Source: a virus. From it: a stretch of 64,000 nt of DNA. The notes under the pieces were generated by a model. It saw only the letters and a list, made by a program, of their open reading frames with translations, made no database searches and was not told the origin of the DNA. Where the stretch lies: positions 118,618-182,617 of the IMG/VR virus record IMGVR_UViG_3300045125_000158; one strand, written 5' to 3'. Made by a program: the position numbers and the translations under genes. This document shows, in pieces, positions 34,871 to 54,300 of this stretch. The stretch's first letter is position 1, and the number at the start of each line of letters is the position of its first letter.

Positions 34871-37800
34871 TTAACCACACTTTGATCCGCCGCAATCCTT
34901 GCAAGTCAAACATCCTTCCATTCTTACGACATTCGCTCCGCCGCATGAAGAGCATTGAGAACCGGTAACCTTAGTTCCATCAGCTATATACTTTTTCAAA
35001 ACTCTAGCCATAGCTTTACCAAAATTAGTCATGTCTCCCGGCGACTTCTCTAGCTGATCAACGATAAATGATATGTCGGAACCATGCCTCAAAGCCAAAC
35101 TAATCATGCGTGTGATAACTGCCTGTTCGTCAGTAAGTAAATCGCAAACATTTTCAACCTTTGACCCGTCCTCTGCATGCAACTCGTAATGTCCTCGTTT
35201 ATTTTTGGTAAGAGTTCCTTTCTTTAGTGTTGTGATGCATCCGTTCTTACCCGCAAATACTTCGTACGGATGACCCTCAAGCATGCTAACAAGAACAAAG
35301 AAATCTTCACCACGAGATTTGATATGATGTATATCACAATCAAGAGTCTTGGGTCGCTTTGGAGCATTCGTCTTAGTAAGCGATTCCTTCTTCTTTTCAG
35401 TGTTTGATACAAGAACGCCAGTGCGACATCCGTCACGATATACAGTAAATCCTTTGCAGCCAGCCTGCCATGCTTTCATGTAAACTTCTGCAACAACTTC
35501 TTGCGTTGCTTCGTTAGGCAAGTTACATGTTTTGCTAATAGCGTGATCAACCCATTTTTGAGCAACGCCCTGCAAATCTACGCTAGCAGCCCAATCTACG
35601 TCGTTGCTTGTTGCCTTGTAATAAGGTGACTCCTTGTAAAATTCAAGATCTTCGGCAGTTGCTATGTTCTTAATTTGATTCGTCTGGAATTTCATATCCA
35701 TTAGCGTCCATCCACGCCTTGAATTGATGATGGAATACTGGGAATTCTTGCCACTTATCTCCGTTCTGATCAACAAAATCAACTCGCACATTCTGGCCAT
35801 CACCGGGATTTATTTTCTTACGACGCTTGTAGAAGACTAAATATGCTGGCTCGATACCAGAGGTGGTTTGGCGTAACTGTTGATACAGAACCCGTAAGGC
35901 GCAGTTGTTAGGTTAGCGATATTTCTGCGACCGTACTTGCTATACAATTCATATACATCTGGTGCGGCATCCCAAATTCTTTGCAAATAAGGATGATTCT
36001 TTTCAAGCTTGTGATCAAAAATAGGGAATGCACCACGATCTTTGCCATCTTGCAACTAGAGCGATAAGAACCAACAGCAAGACTCTTATAAATCATTTCT
36101 GTAATCTCAATGCTCTCTTTGCTACCATATCGGACATTCAAAGCAGCAATAGCGTCACCTAGAGCAGTAATTCCAAGTCCCGTTCTACGCCCCTCAATAC
36201 ATGCCTTGCGTATGTTAAGCCACAACTCTTTTTCAACCAGTTTTACTTCATCAGATTCTGGATCGCTCTCTATTTTAGCTAATATTTTAGCAATCTGCTC
36301 TAATTCAAGGTCGATCATGTCGTCCATGAGTCTCTGTGCAATTTCCGCCATTTGCTCAAGTTTTTTGATAATTAAACTTGGCATTTTTGTAAATTTATCT
36401 GTCTACAAAACTCAACAAATTAACGCACATAAGCCGGCACGAATCTCTAGGACTTAAGATGATTTCGCCACAATTTTTGCTGCAAATCATATGCCATTCT
36501 TTTGCCATCTTTTTCATTTGACCAACCACCCATGTAGTAGTTATTAAATTCATCAACTGTACCATTATAGACAATATCTTTGCCTAGGTATTCAACAGAT
36601 TGGACACGATGATTGTGCTGCAAAGCTGCTGCTTTGAGTTCGGAAAAACTATAAAATCCGTTTTTAGTTCGCAATCTAAAAGATATCTTTTGAGTTCTAC
36701 ACTCGTTTTCCCACTCCTTAAGCAAAGGCTCTCGACACAAAGCCTGCTTGAGTTTTGTATAGATATCTAACTTGTCTTTTTTGTTTTTGTTAGCGTAATT
36801 ATGATACGTTGCATTTATTGATTCTTTTCTGCGAATATTTACATTAGTAGTATTGTTAAGATAAATATTGCTGCAGCTCAGGCTACATACAGATTGCTCT
36901 CTATTGTAGTAATTTACAGCGTATGAATTTTTGCAGCATTTACAATTCTTGATTACATAAACTTCAGATCCTTCGATGTAAGCTTCATAACCTTGCTCGA
37001 TAGCCTTTCGATGAGTTTTAACTAAACGCGGATCAATATCGATATCAGCAAAATTGAGAGCAAGAGCACATTCCTTTGCTAAATCCAAAATATTACCCAA
37101 TTCAGAAGATCGATATGCGGTAAATGTTTGTGGCAAGTTGTTTTTCTTTGCGTACTCAATCCACTCAAGATGTGAAAATCTTGCTCCAACTTGCTTAGTA
37201 AGAATCATTGCGTGTTCTCTAATTTCATCATTGGTATAATTTTTGCGTTTCCATTTTTATCATTACTACAAGCCTCAGACATTACTTGTGAGTAAGCGGC
37301 AAATCTTTCTTTATCAGATTTGATCTTGTAGATGGGGGTTCGCTAATCCACGAATCATGTTGCCGTGATACTGTGCATGAGCATCCTTGTGCATGCTTTC
37401 TAAATTGCTCGGGTTATTATTCTTAGGATTATGATCCTTATGATGCACATGATGATGCTTAGCTACTGGCCCATAATGATGTTCGAACACGTAACGATGC
37501 TCTGACTTTTTAAAATTAGAATTACTATTAGCGAGTATATAATATAAAAGCTTATTGTTTGTAGACTTTTGGGTTGAGAATGCATCTACTATTGTTGACT
37601 CAGAATTTTCTTGCAATGTGCAAGCTGTCGCCATGTTTCAAATTTTTTACTTCGACGAAATCACCAGTATTCAATAGCACTTTATGGTTGCCAGTAGTTT
37701 TAAATTCCGAACCATCATCCAAAACAACTTTATAAACATCCTCACTATGTCCAGTTATTCTTGGGTTACGCATTGTCCTTACAGCAATCCTGCCTTGATG

Positions 37801-38828
37801 ATCGCAACAATAAACAGGCACATCTAAGCCTTCTTCCGCAAGCTTTTGTATTTCAACGAAACCACGTCCATCAGCGACAGCAATCTTGGTGTCACCCGTT
37901 ACACAAGGATTAGTTGCTGTCGATGCGAAACCAAAATCCTTATAAATATCAGATGGGGTATACTTCTGAGCGGTATCCCAAAATAAGCAGATCCTGGCTC
38001 GGCTGATTCCCAAGCAGCATGTATAATTTCTTTCCACAACTCTACTGCATCAACTTCTTGCCGCACTTTTGGATTGCTGGAATTTACTGGCCAACGTAAT
38101 TCAACTTTGCTCTTATTCTTGACTGCATTCATAAATTCATCAGACAAGCGTATAGATATATTTGCTCCAGTGACTTTAGTTTTATCTTTCTTAATATTGA
38201 TGAATGTGCGTATCTCAGGATGATGGCAAGATATTGTTAGCATCAATGCCCCACGACGACCATTTTGCGCAACCTCACGGCAAGTATTACTAAATCGCTC
38301 CATAAATACGCCAATACCATCAGTAGTACGAGCTGCGTTCTTAGTAATGATTCCTTTCGGTCGAATGTGGCTGATATCAAATCCAACACCACCACGACGC
38401 TTCATAATTTGAGCTTGCTCTTGGTCTGTTTTTAATATTCCACCATATGAGTCTTCAGGCGATGGTATCACGAAACAATTCGAACAGCTCTGTATTTGAT
38501 AATCATTTCCAATAGCGCTCATAGGTGAGCCTTGAGGAATTATCCACTGGAAATCCTTGAAATAGTTGCATATTTCTTCTTCACTCAATGCATTGCTATA
38601 ATTCTTTTCTATTCTCGCAAATTCTTTTGCTAATCTTCTGTGCATTTCGTTTGGCGTTGGTTCTAAAATATTACCATTTTGGTCTCGCATAGCATACTTG
38701 CTTACGAAGACACTGGCTGCTAAATTGTCTCCGTCAAAATATTCTAAACTCATTTTCATGGCCTCTTCATGAGTGTAGACGCTTTGACCTTTAGCTATAT
38801 CTTGATTAGCATTTGCGAACGTTGTCAT
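34871..38828 (-). CDS. nrdJ: Class II (B12-dependent) ribonucleotide reductase with an intein, C-terminal TSCPD-like domain and zinc ribbon (frameshifted)
   Basis: PQGSPM, SCSNCFV, RRGGVG, QNGRRGALM, SAEPG, TNP|CGE, RRTGLGITALGD, TAP.G, QKWVDHAISKTCNLP, KGFTVYRDG, terminal CSSCG...CLTCKDCGGSKCG. Confidence 0.93.
36473..37905 (-). mobile_element. Intein with HNH endonuclease in NrdJ (about 477 aa)
   Basis: ATNP|CVTGDTKIAVADGRG...FKTTGNHKVL; HNH HRYVFEHHYG...VHHKDHNPKNNNPSNLESM; VYNGTVDEFNNY...ICSKN|CGEIILSP. The +1 residue is the Cys of the NPCGE active-site motif. Confidence 0.88.
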
Positions 38829-38864
38829 ATTCAATTTCTCCATTTTAATTTATTGGTAAACAGT

Positions 38865-43434: not shown

Positions 43435-44168
43435 ATATGAATAATACATGTTACAATCGAAAACTTTGGATGGTACAAAAGGCTTCTTTTCAAGATTTTT
43501 GCAATTAAAGAGGCTGATTTCAATTGGAAAGGCCCAGCGGCTGCAGCCGCAGGAGCCGCAGCAGGAGCGGCTGCTATTGGCTTAGGATCATTACTTTACA
43601 ACCCCACACCAACCAAAACACCTACGCAAAAAGTTTCGCCTTACACTCAAATAGGTCCTACGCATGAAGAAGACAATACTACTTCTAAATTGCAAAAGTA
43701 TCGCCAAACGACACGAGTAAACAACAGTCTGTATCAGAGAAAATAAAGCTACGCCTAATGATAAGGAATCAGACATGGACGCCATCATGTACGCCATACA
43801 TATGATGGAATCTTCTGGTGGAATAAATAATAAACCTAGACACGAGCCTGGTTTTCAAAAAAGATATGTAGAAAAATGTCTCACAGACAAGAAATTCCAA
43901 ACACCACAATATCAATTTCGTGCGTGATTTAGTTAAAAAGCACGGTAAAAAAGCAGCTGCAACAAGTTACGGTCCCTATCAAGTTATGCTTTTTGAAGCA
44001 TGGAGAATTGGCTACAGAGTATCTCCAGAAGAACTTTCAGATCCAGTAAAATCAAAAGAAATAGCTAAAGCCTATATTAAAAATACCTCATCCGGAAAGA
44101 CTCCACCAAATATTTTTAAAATACAACGGAAGTCCCAACTACGCGAAAAAAGCCATGACATATTATAA
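43435..44168 (+). CDS. Lysozyme-fold muramidase/lytic transglycosylase with an Ala-rich hydrophobic N-terminal segment (frameshifted)
   Basis: GWYKR...IKEADF...AAAAGAAAGAAAIGLG; MDAIMYAIHMMESSGG (catalytic Glu-Ser); ATSYGPYQVM (GxxQ motif). Confidence 0.65.
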
Positions 44169-45771: not shown

Positions 45772-46383
45772 ATGAAATGGTACGAAAAGCAATTCCAAAG
45801 ATTAAAGATATAATTCCATCAATCACAGAAATGTGTAAACATATACATAAGCTTCCTAATGTTAAAAATGTTTATGCTTGGAGAATTTTGCTGAAAAATA
45901 TAAATTCTTCAGAATCAAGAATTAAAAGATATTGACATTCTTATAGAATCAAATTTCGATTCAGGTAGATCTTTTAGTCCATAGACAATAGTAATACCAG
46001 GTGCTTTAAAAATTGCAAAAAACAAATTAGAAGATTTAGGTTCAATCCTGACTGCTGTGAATTTTACCAAATCGTTATTGATGAACAAAGTAGCAACAAT
46101 TGAAATTTGGGCTATTTCAGCTGACAATAAACTATTGCATTGGGGTCCTATATCAGAAACGCTAGAAGACTGGAATCAGCTTAAAGAAGCTGAAACAAAA
46201 GCAATAAACATGACTGGATCTCAACAAAAAGAAATCTTACAGTCAAATGAAGAAAATCGTAAAAAATGGCAACGAATATATGAAAACCATATTCAAGAAT
46301 TCTCCCAAGGATGCCCACAAGGATGGTATGCCTCTCAAAATAATATAGATAAAGTAATTGACAAAGCTGTAAAACTTTTTTGA
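45772..46383 (+). CDS. Putative pol-beta-fold nucleotidyltransferase-like protein (frameshifted)
   Basis: Starts MKWYEKA; VKNVYAW(G)...IKDIDILIE resembles the hG[S]...DhD NTase motif; C-terminal ORF 46057-46383. Confidence 0.45.
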
Positions 46384-46384
46384 G

Positions 46385-46585
46385 TTAAAAAAAATCTAAG
46401 TTATTATCATTATATTGATCATCGTTTTTGCAAATAAATAACTGTCTCCAATCTAAAAGCATAGATTCTTCATTTTCCTCGTAAATATAAAACAAAACTT
46501 CATCATTTATGTAACTCGCTAAGGTTTCATAATCCATGTATTGAGATGGCATTCTCAATGGTATTCTCTGTGATTCTGTCACCAA
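46385..46585 (-). CDS. Small hypothetical protein
   Basis: 66-aa ORF with a GAGAGG RBS. Confidence 0.4.
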   Translation of the reverse strand: MVTESQRIPLRMPSQYMDYETLASYINDEVLFYIYEENEESMLLDWRQLFICKNDDQYNDNNLDFF

Positions 46586-47060: not shown

Positions 47061-47325
47061 ATGAATTCCGTAGTTTCAGAAAGAGCCAAAACTAGATAAA
47101 AATCAATTCACTCACAAAATTGTTATTGATTGTAATCAAAAAACTGTTTTACAGATTGAAAATCTTTGTAGATATTTTGAATTAACTCCAAATTCTCTTA
47201 TTTTGCGAGGTCTTTGGATGTTGAATATGATTAAGGAAGTAGAATTATCTAATAAAAAAATCGGTATCATCACTTTGGATAACTCTAATATTGTAACTGA
47301 TATATCACCAATAAATATTGTTTGA
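47061..47325 (+). CDS. Small ribbon-helix-helix-like DNA-binding protein (frameshifted)
   Basis: HKIVIDC...QIENLCRYFELTPNSLILRGLWMLNMIKEVE pattern; upstream TTGACA-N18-TATTTT sigma70-like site near 46986. Confidence 0.4.
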
Positions 47326-47439: not shown

Positions 47440-47985
47440 TTCGATTATTCGCAAACTCCTTCGTCGTTTGCGGAATACGAACTTCTCCGAAGACTCCGAA
47501 GTTCATATTCTTTGTAAAATCATTTCTTTTGTAAAAGTCAAGTTACATTTATTTTGGATATTGGATATTTGATATTGCGCTTACGCCGCACTCCCTTTCA
47601 GCCGGAAAGAATTTTGAGGAAAAAACTTTTTCTGGCCGAAAGACAATTCCATGCGATATGCATGAAACGCTACTAAGTCGGTCTTCTTAAGGTCGGCGTT
47701 AATACTTAGTTCTCAATCAGTCACACCGTCTCTTTTACGCTATCACAATAGAAAGGGAGCAACTATGGTGAACGCTAGACTTAATTACTTAAGTCATCAT
47801 AGAGTATAAAGTAAGATATTTTATCTTTATACACCGCTTGTCAAGCAGTCTAGTACCTAGGCTCTAGACCCAAGCCTCGTCAATATTAAATGGTTATTGA
47901 CCGACTCGATAAAATATGATCGAAACTGAGCAAATATCTACTCATGGAATCTGTTTGATCTACAGATTCGACCATATTTTTTGTT
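47440..47985 (+). ncRNA. Large structured non-coding element of unknown class (RNA or origin)
   Basis: At least 10 hairpins or long-range helices and no ORF of 60 aa or more; G.U pairs favour the plus strand. Confidence 0.5.
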
Positions 47986-47990
47986 AAACT

Positions 47991-48155
47991 TTAATGATTC
48001 ACTTTAACGAATTGCAAGGGAGATTCTTTTTCACCTTTTTTATCGTCACAAGAGCAGCATTTATTAGTGCAAGATTTTATTTCTTTATTATTCTGATAGA
48101 ATGGCATGTGTTCGTCATCATCGTAGTATGGCTCGTTATTTTCAAGATTTGTCAT
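47991..48155 (-). CDS. 54-aa acidic/Cys-containing peptide (MTNLENNEPYYDDDEH...CTNKCCSC...)
   Basis: AGGAG RBS and an uninterrupted frame. Confidence 0.4.
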   Translation of the reverse strand: MTNLENNEPYYDDDEHMPFYQNNKEIKSCTNKCCSCDDKKGEKESPLQFVKVNH

Positions 48156-48196: not shown

Positions 48197-48964
48197 TCAA
48201 AACTTCGCATCTTCCTTTTCTATATCGATTTTTTTGTAAGGCAACGATGAAATTCCAATGCAAACGTCCCAGACATACTCAGATACGAAATATTGCATTA
48301 TTGTAACTTCTACGCCAGTCTTTCCTGTAATTGTTCTGTAACTCGTTATAAGCCTATCAACAAGAACGTCTACTTCTTCTGGGCTCGTTATCCTATATTT
48401 TTTAAGAGGATACCTATAAGCTGGTATAAGACCCCTTTTGAGGAAAAAAATATCTTTCGATTTGCTTCTGTAATGATTTGCAAAAAAATCTGAATCGTTT
48501 TCTTGCAAAACTAAAAGCTCGTTCACGTTGTCGTCAAGATTCGTTCCGCCAAAAAAATGTTGAGTAACAACTATTTTGGGATCCTCAAAATCCAGAACTT
48601 CCGTATTATTTATTTTTACCAAAGCAGTATCATCAGATTTATTGTTGTATTCTTCTAACAACATACACCATGAATGTATAGAATCCGTATTATTGCAATT
48701 TAGCTTTGTCGTACGAATATTAAGTTTTTTAATAGTTTCATCTTTTTGCAAAAGATTTATACCGCCGATGGCTACGTATCGTTTTCCGGTGCTCGTATCT
48801 ACGTACTTGTATGCATATATTTTGACTAAGCTTTTATTCTCATACTCTATTGCTTTTTTTACACTTTCGGATACAAGTTGATTACAATGCGAAAATGCAA
48901 GACAAAGCAAATCTACTAAATCGTCAATGCGATTGATCATATCTTGCTTGCTTTGCATATTCAA
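48197..48964 (-). CDS. Hypothetical protein
   Basis: 255-aa ORF. Confidence 0.6.
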   Translation of the reverse strand: MNMQSKQDMINRIDDLVDLLCLAFSHCNQLVSESVKKAIEYENKSLVKIYAYKYVDTSTGKRYVAIGGINLLQKDETIKKLNIRTTKLNCNNTDSIHSWCMLLEEYNNKSDDTALVKINNTEVLDFEDPKIVVTQHFFGGTNLDDNVNELLVLQENDSDFFANHYRSKSKDIFFLKRGLIPAYRYPLKKYRITSPEEVDVLVDRLITSYRTITGKTGVEVTIMQYFVSEYVWDVCIGISSLPYKKIDIEKEDAKF

Positions 48965-49763
48965 CGAAGGGAATATAAAAGCAGCCAGTATCGCAATTGT
49001 CGTTGATAAAATTTATGTTTTGTTCGAAATTAGCAAAGCCAAAAAAAGCTATATTCCTATCTAACGGGAAAGAAATATAACCAGAATCTGGTTTTTCACT
49101 GTCAATAATATTCAATTCGTAGTAGTAATTGTTTTTAGAACATAGCGTCGTCGTATAGGTCTTCATCTTTTCCTTCGGGTTGATCGATTGTGCTGGTAAT
49201 TCCATACTCGTTCAACTCAAAATTGTCTATTGTGTTTGAAACGTTTTTTCCACACACCGCAAGTAACAAGCATAAAGAACGCACAAAAAATTCTTGTGCT
49301 GGTAAATCTAAGTGTTCTAGCTCACAAATTTGAAAATACGTACCTTCCGATTGACAACTGATTGTGTTGTCCTTTAAACATACCGCAATCGATTTTCTTT
49401 GCTTCAAGAAATCACATAAACTTTCACAAAAGACCAAATCGCTCTCTTGTGTTGAAACATTTATATTTGCTGATTTTAAAGATGCAATCACAAGATCTTG
49501 CAAGAAACTTGTGTTATGAAAACCTATACAACAAAATAAGACAATTTTTTTCTGAGTTGGGCTTACAGAAAATCTTTGTCGACCCACTTATTTGATTTGT
49601 GCTGTAAGAAAATCTTTTCGTTGGAGAAAATTATATCTTTTGTATCGAAAAGATATTTAACGATTTGATCAACTACATGTTTGTTGAATTCGTGTATGGG
49701 TATTTTTTTCATGTTCAATCTATGAGTGGTTGACCTTTGATGACAGGTATGTCGTACAGGCAC
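48924..49763 (-). CDS. Hypothetical proteins (ORFs 49563-49763, 49135-49587, 48924-49205; some may join by frameshift)
   Basis: Overlapping ORFs in series. Confidence 0.4.
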
Positions 49764-50719
49764 TCGTTGCCATATATTTGACCAACATGTTCTATCATAA
49801 TACCACTATGGCTAGTAACGATGAATTGTTTGTTTGGAAAAGAATCTAATATCGAATCAATCATTTTTTTGTGCCGTTTGAAGTAAACGTGCAGCTCTAT
49901 ATTATCTACCAGTACAATATCACTTCTATCTATGACGGTTGGGTCGCATAGGTTTCTCAAAAGTGTTGCTATCTTTTTTTCACCAGCACTCATTGACTTG
50001 TAGTGAACCTTGACATCACCTTTGTTTATGACAAAATCTTGATAAAAACAAAATTCTTCATTTGCGACATTTGTTGTCAGAGCTGTATATATTTCTTGTT
50101 TTGTCAACAAAACATCTTGAGTTTTTATGGTTGTGTCTTTGATGCTGGCATATGCAGCTAGAGCTTGCTTTAAAGCGTCTTTGTTTGCGTTTACGCCTTC
50201 TGCTGCGATTGGTTTCTCTAAGCAACAATCATACCCGTAAATGGCTTTTGCGAGGGTTATAAATGTCTGGGATCTGTCTGTTGGTATTTGAAATTTAGCA
50301 GTGCTTAGTGGGTTGTCAGCATCAATAAATATTACGCTATCACCTTTTCTGTCAACCAAATCATTTCTTACAACATCATCATTAATTATTTCTACATGAT
50401 AATCTTTGATGCCATCTGAAAAAATTCCATGAATATGCATTTCATCTGTGTATTTTGTAAAACCAGCATAATTTGGGTCGTAGTCAGGATGAAACTGCAA
50501 CTTACGTAAAAGCAAATTATCGTCTTCTGTGCTTCTCTTTATGTACGCTTTTGCTCTACCAAGTAAAGTAATTGCGTTCAAAGCTGTGCTTTTACCGCAG
50601 CCGTTTGGGCCGAAAAACATATTTATAGGCTTATATATATTGTAATTTGTAAAATCAAAAGTAACTGGATCCTTAAATCCAGCGTAATTCTTCAAAAATA
50701 AAGATTTTATCTTTAGCAT
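49715..50719 (-). CDS. ABC-fold ATPase (AAA_15/AAA_21 or Rad50-like)
   Basis: Walker A GPNGCGKST, signature MSAGE, Walker B VLVDNIE, H-loop VTSHS. Confidence 0.85.
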   Translation of the reverse strand: MLKIKSLFLKNYAGFKDPVTFDFTNYNIYKPINMFFGPNGCGKSTALNAITLLGRAKAYIKRSTEDDNLLLRKLQFHPDYDPNYAGFTKYTDEMHIHGIFSDGIKDYHVEIINDDVVRNDLVDRKGDSVIFIDADNPLSTAKFQIPTDRSQTFITLAKAIYGYDCCLEKPIAAEGVNANKDALKQALAAYASIKDTTIKTQDVLLTKQEIYTALTTNVANEEFCFYQDFVINKGDVKVHYKSMSAGEKKIATLLRNLCDPTVIDRSDIVLVDNIELHVYFKRHKKMIDSILDSFPNKQFIVTSHSGIMIEHVGQIYGNECLYDIPVIKGQPLID

Positions 50720-51359: not shown

Positions 51360-54300
51360 TTATTTCTTTTCATCTTCTGCTTCTGCTTCTTTTTGATTAT
51401 TTTCAATAGCCTTAGCTATAATCTTTTGCATTTCTTGAATCTTCTGTGCTTCTGTCAAACCTGGATTTTCCATGATTGCGTCAAAATCTATATTCTGTTG
51501 CTGTGCATAATCTTCTATATCTTCAAGGGTTTGTGCGATATCTCCCTCGCCAAACAAAAATTCTTGGTCATTTTCTATTCCGCCCGCCTGTTTCAAATTT
51601 TTATTCAGTTCAATTTCTGCTGCTGCTCTTTGTTTTTCAAGATCAACCATTTTTGCAGAATTTCCGCAAGACGCTTTTTGTCAGGTGCACTATTTAAACC
51701 ACGTAAAATAATTTTCTGCGTATCATGATCAAGTTTTTGTATTTGATCTGCTATTTCAATTTTGTTACGTACATAATCGTAGAAAATTTGATCTAAAGAA
51801 CTTTGTTGGGGAGTGCCTTCTATAAGCATATAAAAAGTATTCACGCCGGAAATATTATTAATTCTAAACGCTCTGCCTTCAGTTTGTTTTGCGGTTGAGG
51901 GAGACCAATCGAAATCATTCATGATAACATAACTTGCCGTATTTTCCAAACTTAAACCTGTGCCACCCTTTTTAGCTGATATAACCATAGCACGCGACAA
52001 GCTATCTTGGTCCTTAAATTTTGCAACTTTATTTTGTATATTAGGGCCTTCATCGTTTTGACTAATTTTCAAAACTCTTTCTCCACCAAAAGCCGCTTCA
52101 ATTTCAGGGTCGAATCCATCTTGCTCTCGCAAAAAAGTTTCAAGTTCTGCTTTGATCTTATTAACACAGCTTATGAAGTTAGAAAAAATTAAAACTTTAT
52201 TGCCTTGTTCTGCCAAGATTTTTTAGCAAAGGCAACAGTAGCAGGCACTTTAAGATTAGCCATTTCAACGCGAGCATGAATCATAGCGGCAAGTTTTTCA
52301 TGTGCTTCGCCATGGAGAAATGCATATTCGTAGCTTCGAACCATAGTATCATATGCATCACCGTCTATTTGTTCTTTTGGTACATTACTTTTATCAACAA
52401 TGTGATCTGGTAAATCGGGGTTTATGTCACGCATAGATCTGCTGAAAAATATACCAGATAGCACGAGTATTTTCTTTAGCTCGAACGCCTTATCTTGTAC
52501 TTCTTCAAGCAATTCATCAATATTTGGCGATTGATAGCCTTTTTAATTTAAGTTTCTTTACATAACCTTTTTTGAATCTTCCTAAACTCATTTCGCCCAA
52601 CGTATGACCTGTCAAGTTTAAAATATTATGAATGTCTCGCGGGTGTGTTGGCTACGGTTGTTGCCGATGCAGCCCACCTGAAAGGAACAGATTTTACAAT
52701 CTCTTGTAAATTTATCGAGGCTGCAGTTTGGCTGTTTTTAACTGTATGTGATTCATCTACGATTACTACTTCAAATTTCATGGTCAACAAAGTATTCATA
52801 ATTGCACGAATACGATTTTTTTCGTACAAGTATCTACCTTCAAAATCTTTTTTATATTCCTTAGTGGTGATGTCATTTAGGATACTGACCAATATTTGAG
52901 TATGAAATTACTATCCAGTCAGCATTTTTAACAGCATCAGCAGTAAGGTCTTGACTAATAATATAGGGTATATCTTCAAGACCTTTTTGTCTCTCCATAG
53001 TGCATACAACTATTTTTTGAGGCGAAACTCCAAGCTTATTCATACCTTCATTTGCCCATTGGAATTTCAGATTGTTCAGAGTTACTATAAGAACCTTTAC
53101 CACCTTCTTTTACTCTCCTTACCTGCAGCAGTTAACGTTGAAAGAGTTTTTCCGGTTCCAGGATCGTCTCCTAATATTGCGCCATTTCTTTCGTATAACC
53201 ATCTAACTCCGTATTTTTGTTGATCGAACAAAGTAATATCTGGCGTTACAACTTCTTTGATATCATCATAAAAAGCCTGATAATCAAAGCTTGGGTTACC
53301 ATTTTCGTCTCTTGTTTGTTCCGTTACTTTTTGATATACTTGCTCGCCATCTTCGTCGTATACGGGCTCTCCTCGGCGTTAAGCATAGGTATGTAATGAG
53401 TTCGAAGCACCTCATAACCATCAAGGGTCGCAGTATATCATAAGGCGACCTTTGTACACGAGGCTTTTGTAAAAGCCCACTTTTTGTATTTCTATAAAAG
53501 CCTGTCTATATTCTGTAACGTCCCAGCCTGTGTTGCTTAATATTTTGCCAAACTTATATAAATCATCATATTTTCCGTAAACAAAAAATCTGCCATTATG
53601 CCTATCATCTATAAGCATACCTTCGGGTTTTTCTCTGCGGTCTACAGGTATTTCCAAATTTGGACGAACAAGATCTTTTTCCATGTTAGCAAATGTTGGA
53701 AAGCTAAACCTTAAATAACTGTATAAATCCGTCATTAGATCTAAATCTCGTGGTGCTTCAATTTCAATATGCATTTTTGTTGTATTTGAAACATTACGAG
53801 CATGAATTACTTTACGGAAATCCGTAAAATACTCAGGGTTTTCTTGTAAAAATATTTTATAATTTTGTATTCTTTCGTCAAGTGCTGATGAGTTTATATT
53901 TTGCTGTTTAAGAATTGATGATAATTTTTCCAATTGTTCAGCAGGTACTTTTGTGCATAATAAATGCACCCTCTGTTCCGTCAAATTTAGAAGTTCCCGG
54001 TTCTAGATATGCACTTCTAGTAAAGTTCTCATCAATAAGTTTTGTTACTGTGTCTCTTATTTGTTTTGGCGTATTATTGCCGTCACTCTGACGCACTGCA
54101 ATTCCAATTATATCTTTATTTGCACTTTTTTGATATGCTGCGTTTTTGAAATTCTGCAAAACAACTATGTCATAAGTGATAAGCTTTGTTCAGCCGCTTG
54201 CTGCATTTGTTGTTTCGATTGCACTAAGTAGGCCGCAAGAGGAGTTGTATCAAAGCCAAAAGCCGTTAATTTTTGCACTTAGATTTATGAACAAAACTGA

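Follow-up and report, generated by a model that had tools for sequence, protein, structure and literature searches.

A predicted single-copy structured RNA on the minus strand of very large phages

Comparison with related phage records predicts that positions 47577-47903 of a 64,000-nucleotide stretch of viral DNA (the window) are the conserved core of a minus-strand, single-copy noncoding RNA family, which lies outside Rfam and is carried by very large phages. The window corresponds to bases 118618-182617 of the 187-kb IMG/VR record IMGVR_UViG_3300045125_000158, with an estimated completeness of 93%, and all coordinates without a prefix refer to it. The best overall explanation, which we hold at slightly better than even confidence, is a stand-alone structured RNA, read from the minus strand and working via its fold.

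The original prediction, made from the letters of the window, had proposed a possible undescribed multi-domain phage RNA of about 550 nt at 47440-47985, distinct from tRNA, tmRNA, RNase P and introns. Its general outline was borne out: every inverted repeat that it named was found in the sequence, neither Rfam 15 nor ARAGORN gave a match, and the checks proposed with it were answered by folding energies better than those of shuffled sequences on both strands, by clearly positive covariation in homologs and by a search with the Rfam 15 covariance models that gave nothing at gathering score. The predicted extent stood for a conserved core of about 330 nt, but the flanks are lineage-specific. The hairpins at 47445-47506, the repeats at 47507-47575 and the three-way junction at 47911-47981, all of which had been counted in the element, are replaced by other sequences in the relatives.

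Relatives of the element and comparison with known RNA families

Relatives were reached through the AAA ATPase gene at 49715-50719, which led to related viral contigs where nhmmer matched the element at the syntenic place. The ATPase profile search was extended to more distant phage records; six of these contained the RNA according to a covariance model of the 3' half, and the same model with its filters off added two more, of 488 and 498 kb. Altogether, 14 distinct copies were found, one per record: the window copy and 13 more in related uncultivated phage records. Most of the 14 records are contigs of 250-505 kb, and they represent, whole or in part, phage genomes of around 0.5 Mb; two copies belong to complete genomes with terminal repeats (488 and 498 kb), and the 187-kb phage of the window has the smallest genome among the records estimated to be near-complete. 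Exact-pattern scans of the core yielded only known copies from the viral contigs, and in the metagenomes they added at least two records (L127 and L132); the additions comprised a short metagenome contig and a 505-kb contig with a known copy. A second viral scan gave no further copy beyond chance matches, and the same kind of scan on genomes gave only chance matches among the matches listed. The cultured-phage collection showed no match by DNA or by ATPase protein, and the neighbouring protein encoded at 48197-48964 has no relative in the viral contigs.

Three block models (R1-R3) were built from the three closest relatives and every member was aligned to them; their E-values are rough owing to a short covariance-model calibration. 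The window matched model R1 with 74 bits at 47589-47741, and model R2 weakly and collinearly at 47722-47873 (6 bits), the 5' half of the window copy being very divergent. Model R3, which covers the M2 block, matched only four members.

Across the whole window, no Rfam 15 family was found at gathering score, including GOLLD, ROOL, OLE, HEARO, RNase P, group I and II introns, HDV-like and other small ribozymes, and riboswitches. With lax thresholds, the surroundings of the element gave only chance-level matches (E 3.5-8.6), and in four relatives the best match, with an E-value of 0.028, lay on the other strand and scored below half of the gathering threshold. A hammerhead-like core in the junction was also considered and rejected, as its words are unconserved. 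ARAGORN reported neither tmRNA nor tRNA in the window and in L132, L020, L015, L013 and L017, and the conserved CACCAAA of the plus strand, tried as a tRNA-like 3' end or tmRNA, turned out to be the opposite-strand copy of the minus-strand terminator around its U-run. The literature searches brought up no account of an RNA like this one.

GOLLD and ROOL are large ornate RNAs, often found in phages and prophages, and both are represented in Rfam. The RNA described here resembles them in its length of several hundred nucleotides, its many helices, its pseudoknots and conserved unpaired loops, and also in being phage-borne, encoded by a single gene and without an assigned function. It differs in having a smaller core of about 330 nt, and their covariance models do not match it even at E-values up to 10. 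GOLLD and ROOL RNAs are reported to form multimeric cages (bioRxiv 10.1101/2024.12.08.627333). There is also some likeness to the tmRNA of huge phages, which is pseudoknotted, 350-450 nt long and found in very large phages; in the relatives, the RNA adjoins a translation gene encoding a peptide deformylase. However, ARAGORN and Rfam do not match it, and a tRNA-like acceptor and T-arm or a tag frame were not found by eye.

Fold, covariation and strand of the RNA

The core at 47577-47903, delimited by the nhmmer match to the relatives and by models R1 and R2, contains all the family-wide helices. The fold amounts to about eleven helices, including a long-range helix and the pseudoknot PK1, and is described here 5' to 3' in the minus sense. 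Stop codons were read by hand in all six frames of the core, and no ORF common to different phages was found in this stretch. The fold is least certain in its 5' domain, which comprises helix M2 (47879-47901, 7 bp) and, upstream, a small alternative hairpin; by eye, the partner sequences of M2 differ between members. Hairpin M3 (47859-47877) is nearly invariant and shows one U.G/U-A exchange, which fits the minus sense. In the relatives, M3 is followed by the 5' strand of the long-range helix; this helix was not found in the window, where a different closing helix joins 47848-47853 with 47776-47781. Then come four hairpins: M4 (47833-47849, 7 bp), with 89-94% of cells paired and C-G/U-A exchanges; M5 (47804-47832, helix 4 of its block), variable in sequence and fixed in place, with 79% of cells paired and the worst alignment of all helices; M6 (47778-47795, helix 5), with 94% paired and three of four pairs changed on both sides; and M7 (47743-47771, helix 6), with 93% paired and nine of 12 pairs changed on both sides. 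The loop of M7 (47751-47759) is the 5' strand of PK1.

The 3' half starts with a purine-rich junction (47711-47742) that carries the 3' strand of the long-range helix and whose residues CGG, GACUG and UGA.A are invariant in all 14 aligned members. Hairpin H4 (47672-47710; helix 1) has a 7-bp stem, 47672-47678 with 47704-47710, in which 100% of cells are paired and all seven pairs changed on both sides, and a conserved loop of about 25 nt with the invariant residues CCGAC, AA and A.A.CA. It is followed by hairpin H3 (47645-47669; helix 2), with 90% of cells paired and five of six pairs changed on both sides, and by the long hairpin H2 (47595-47642; helices 3 and 4), with 93-95% paired and 18 of 21 pairs changed on both sides. 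PK1 pairs 47751-47759 with its 3' strand, 47591-47599, part of which also belongs to the 3' strand of the H2 base. The small GC-rich hairpin H1 (47577-47591) closes the core; it is of GCGC type and its pairing is ambiguous, with two or three GCGC words in the relatives.

Sequences outside the core are particular to the phage of the window. On the 5' side, the minus-strand fold shows a three-way-junction hairpin domain (47911-47981) whose A.C mismatches in the plus sense are G.U pairs in the minus sense, and which probably also ends the upstream 54-aa ORF; the relatives have a plain GC-rich terminator and other hairpins at this position. On the 3' side, an AT-rich spacer with short direct repeats (47507-47576) is unconserved in the relatives, and two terminator-like hairpins (47445-47506) are missing from them; neither was assigned to a strand, and the hairpins could terminate both the minus-strand RNA and the plus-strand ORF that lies upstream of them. 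The full transcript may span about 47440-47985.

Compensatory changes were counted in two blocks and in PK1. Block I (the junction, H4, H3 and H2) was counted in 14 sequences and showed 94.2% of cells paired, compared with 72.3% in shuffled alignments and 35-52% in slid controls. In this block, 30 of 34 pairs changed on both sides, a number expected to be 18.7 from shuffling and reached by none of 500 shuffles, and the covariation score was 0.596 vs. 0.237. Block II (the long-range helix and M4-M7), counted in nine sequences, showed 89.1% of cells paired (75.2% shuffled; slid controls 38-51%) and 24 of 46 pairs changed on both sides (12.1 shuffled; 0 of 500 shuffles); both blocks were aligned to the minus-sense structure, so their pair counts lean toward that structure. 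According to the per-pair tables, the cells that differ from the commonest pair still pair in 84% of cases in block I and 69% in block II. PK1 was counted on a MAFFT alignment that made no use of structure: across 12 sequences, 89.0% of cells were paired (80.5% shuffled; slid controls 36-58%) and five of 10 pairs changed on both sides, against 1.7 in shuffles, two of 500 of which reached this value; as the 14 sequences are related, none of these shuffle counts is a probability. Four sequence variants of PK1 were found and all of them keep complementarity.

In every member, the 3' strand of PK1 shares 2-6 nt with the 3' strand of the H2 base, therefore the full PK1 and the full H2 base cannot form simultaneously. 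L013, L296, L297 and L298 have a shorter H2 base and a complete PK1. These sequences suggest that the H2 base and PK1 may be the two states of a conformational switch; alternatively, PK1 may be the sole real pairing there and the extension of the H2 base incidental.

Folding energies of 47440-47985 were -139 kcal/mol on the plus strand (shuffles -112 ± 6.4; z -4.2) and -155.7 kcal/mol on the minus strand (shuffles -121 ± 6.0; z -5.8), and no shuffle matched the native energy on either strand. The better-than-shuffle folding of both strands therefore indicates more structure than expected by chance. The minus strand folded better in all six sequences compared, with z-scores of -4.7, -4.8, -3.7, -4.8, -5.8 and -4.4, vs. 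-4.2, -2.6, -0.5, -1.5, -4.6 and -3.7 for the plus strand, where the two weakest values belong to L017 and L132. RNAalifold on sequence-only alignments gave -80.9 for minus and -66.0 for plus with three sequences, and -30.0 and -24.2 with six. Between the close pair L017 and L132, the minus-sense helices show 16 one-sided changes kept as G.U and three compensatory changes, compared with six and none in the plus sense. The consensus helices contain 574 Watson-Crick cells, 95 cells that are G.U in the minus sense and 10 A.C cells, which would be G.U on the plus strand. Furthermore, H2 of the relatives pairs perfectly over about 20 bp in the minus sense only, the flanking genes are co-oriented with the RNA in every relative, and the terminator beside the RNA has a far better U-run on the minus strand. 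On the basis of these z-scores, RNAalifold energies, L017/L132 changes, wobble counts, H2 helix, gene orientation and terminator U-run, the RNA is assigned to the minus strand.

The original prediction had chosen the plus strand from G.U pairs valid on that strand only, and the comparative data indicate the opposite. Three such pairs exist in the window, two in H2 and one elsewhere, and the wobble pairs of the window H2 taken alone slightly favour the plus strand. The hairpin at 47678-47699 that had been proposed from plus-only G.U pairs falls in the conserved loop of about 25 nt of H4; as a plus-strand hairpin within H4 it was rejected, since it is unpairable in distant members.

Genomic context and expression signals

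Almost all genes of the window lie on the minus strand, with the exception of a block at about 43.7-47.3 kb. The element occupies a 660-nt gap between a plus-strand ORF ending at 47325 and a minus-strand ORF of 54 aa (47991-48155), and it is surrounded by a nucleotide-metabolism and replication gene block with RNR and helicases, and ThyX in the relatives. The plus-strand neighbour (47086-47325), which had been called RHH-like, matches nothing in Pfam and lacks a start codon in its frame; an ATG at 47062 lies out of frame with it, and the sequence suggests that one base may have been lost or gained in an A run. Other genes of the window are also split, at 43775-44168, 45777-46383, 46385-46585 and 51605-53984, each appearing as two to four ORFs against one intact gene in a relative. 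The intact counterparts encode proteins of 232 aa, 250 aa, 117 aa and about 1040 aa, the latter labelled SNF2 in the original prediction, and the comparison suggests assembly indel errors or gene decay. In addition, the ribonucleotide reductase large-subunit gene is broken (36447-38843, minus strand): ORF 37899-38843 covers the N-terminal domain but extends only about 190 positions into the barrel, the remainder may lie in other ORFs just downstream, and the break could stem from a frameshift, intein or intron.

In the relatives, the gene order on the RNA strand is a cytidylyltransferase-like gene, a phosphohydrolase (phrog_19425), an acidic ORF, a strong intrinsic terminator and the RNA, followed on the 3' side by a spacer of 210-290 nt, a gene for a basic protein of 62-74 aa and a peptide deformylase. 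The acidic ORF, which adjoins the terminator and the RNA upstream, is conserved, encodes 50-67 aa with about 70% Asp and Glu (L017:9568-9720 and L020:2709-2891, both on the minus strand, and also in L296 and L297) and recalls the DNA-mimic anti-restriction proteins. The 54-aa ORF of the window occupies the same place; only its start is acidic, and by sequence it looks like a degraded or frameshifted form of the acidic ORF.

The basic protein has a pI of about 10 and a shared WGF-containing motif, and follows the RNA in most relatives (at least L017, L015, L020, L295, L298 and L299), with the deformylase in several of them. Its gene lies on the minus strand at L017:8667-8855 and L015:2933-3139, and in L298 and L299 at about 1858-2131 in the RNA-sense orientation. 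No Pfam or PHROG family matches the protein, and the ESM Atlas gave sub-threshold matches only. It is a candidate partner of the RNA. Neither the basic-protein gene nor the deformylase gene was detected anywhere in the 187-kb record of the window phage, where the RNA is followed by the two terminator-like hairpins, present in the window only, and then by a gene on the opposite strand.

No sigma-70-like promoter was found between the upstream terminator and the RNA, in a scan that may miss phage-specific promoters, and transcription of the RNA may depend on phage-specific signals or read-through. A Bacteroidota-type promoter was considered and rejected; the ribosome-binding sites of the relatives are GGAG. 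The word UUUGGUG stands just 3' of the upstream terminator stem in L017, L132, L295, L296, L020 and L013, and UUUCGUG in L015 and L300; it could be part of the promoter of the RNA or of its 5' end. No canonical terminator was found in the relatives between the RNA core and the next gene, and no U-run follows H2, so an attenuator is not evident. The spacer of 210-290 nt has unconserved hairpins and one conserved promoter-like word, AAUGAAAA.GU, about 70-100 nt upstream of the next gene in L015, L017, L020, L295, L296 and L300; some members also have a TATAGTTAAT-like box after it. The AAUGAAAA.GU word may be a phage-specific promoter.

Possible modes of action and significance

The RNA would act by its fold, and neither as a DNA signal nor as a coding sequence. 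The invariant loop of H4 and the junction would make up an active site or one that binds a protein, a ligand or a second RNA, and the choice between the H2 base and PK1 would be a conformational switch of an RNA that acts on its own. The stand-alone reading is favoured because the phage of the window keeps the RNA without the two genes that follow it in the relatives. In its most specific form, the RNA would belong to a new class of large megaphage RNAs, a ribozyme or a ligand- or protein-sensing switch, perhaps forming a ribonucleoprotein with the neighbouring basic protein, in which the invariant junction and the loop of about 25 nt would be the site and the competition between the H2 base and PK1 the working stroke; taken jointly, we regard these proposals as speculative and rather unlikely.

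The RNA could instead be a cis-acting leader, that is, the long 5' UTR of an operon for the small basic protein and the peptide deformylase, in which a ligand or the basic protein would control the H2-base/PK1 switch, as in riboswitches, T-boxes and ribosomal-protein leaders. We consider this possible, with well under even confidence, and it has to be taken seriously as a rival, because distant members, too, have the basic-protein gene 210-290 nt behind the RNA, with no terminator between them. The common direction of the RNA and the downstream genes in all relatives, the presence of the deformylase in several of them and the conservation of mutually exclusive pairings are also what such a leader would show. 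However, the RNA is much larger than those leaders, and neither a terminator nor an RBS-sequestering platform is evident, the H2-base/PK1 alternative touching neither a terminator nor an RBS and H2 lacking the U-run of an attenuator. Moreover, the conserved promoter-like word of the relatives lies between the RNA and the next gene, and in the window the RNA persists in a 187-kb record with neither gene, where terminator-like hairpins and an opposite-strand gene come after it.

Two further explanations carry far less weight. The original prediction had named an origin or an RNA-regulated origin as the alternative. The element would then be a replication origin or a transcript that primes one, in the style of ColE1 RNA II or phage T4, and its structure would serve unwinding or an R-loop. 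The setting is suggestive: a nucleotide-metabolism and replication block, an adjoining AT-rich spacer with short direct repeats in the window, and a predicted folded transcript near 500 nt in length next to genes for replication, much as in ColE1 RNA II and the T4 oriF and oriG transcripts. We judge it very unlikely, as the cumulative GC skew runs monotonically through 47.5 kb with no turn there, the repeats and the spacer are unconserved, and the compensatory changes, together with the conserved G.U pairs, point to selection acting on the fold of a single-stranded RNA, which is the conserved thing here, and not on duplex DNA. A plus-strand noncoding RNA, starting from a promoter of its own on the left and terminated by the right-hand hairpin, could draw on the z-score of -4.2 for the plus strand of the window, on the L017 terminator, which scores in both directions, and on the three plus-only G.U pairs of the window. 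It is hardly credible when set against the plus-strand z-scores of only -0.5 and -1.5 in L017 and L132, the 95 to 10 balance of wobble cells in favour of minus, the L020 terminator, which scores on the minus strand only, and the loss of the plus-only hairpin in distant members.

To our knowledge, few classes of large, intricately folded noncoding RNAs are known in bacteria and phages, and those characterised have proved either to serve a fundamental function of the cell (RNase P, tmRNA, self-splicing introns) or to be built in an unexpected way (GOLLD, ROOL, OLE). The RNA described here is a new class within a known kind, the large, ornate, phage-borne noncoding RNAs. Its comparative support is unusually clean for so few sequences, with a well-defined invariant core and conserved mutually exclusive pairings, and the covariance models and coordinates make it directly testable in a group of phages of about half a megabase that has hardly been explored biologically.
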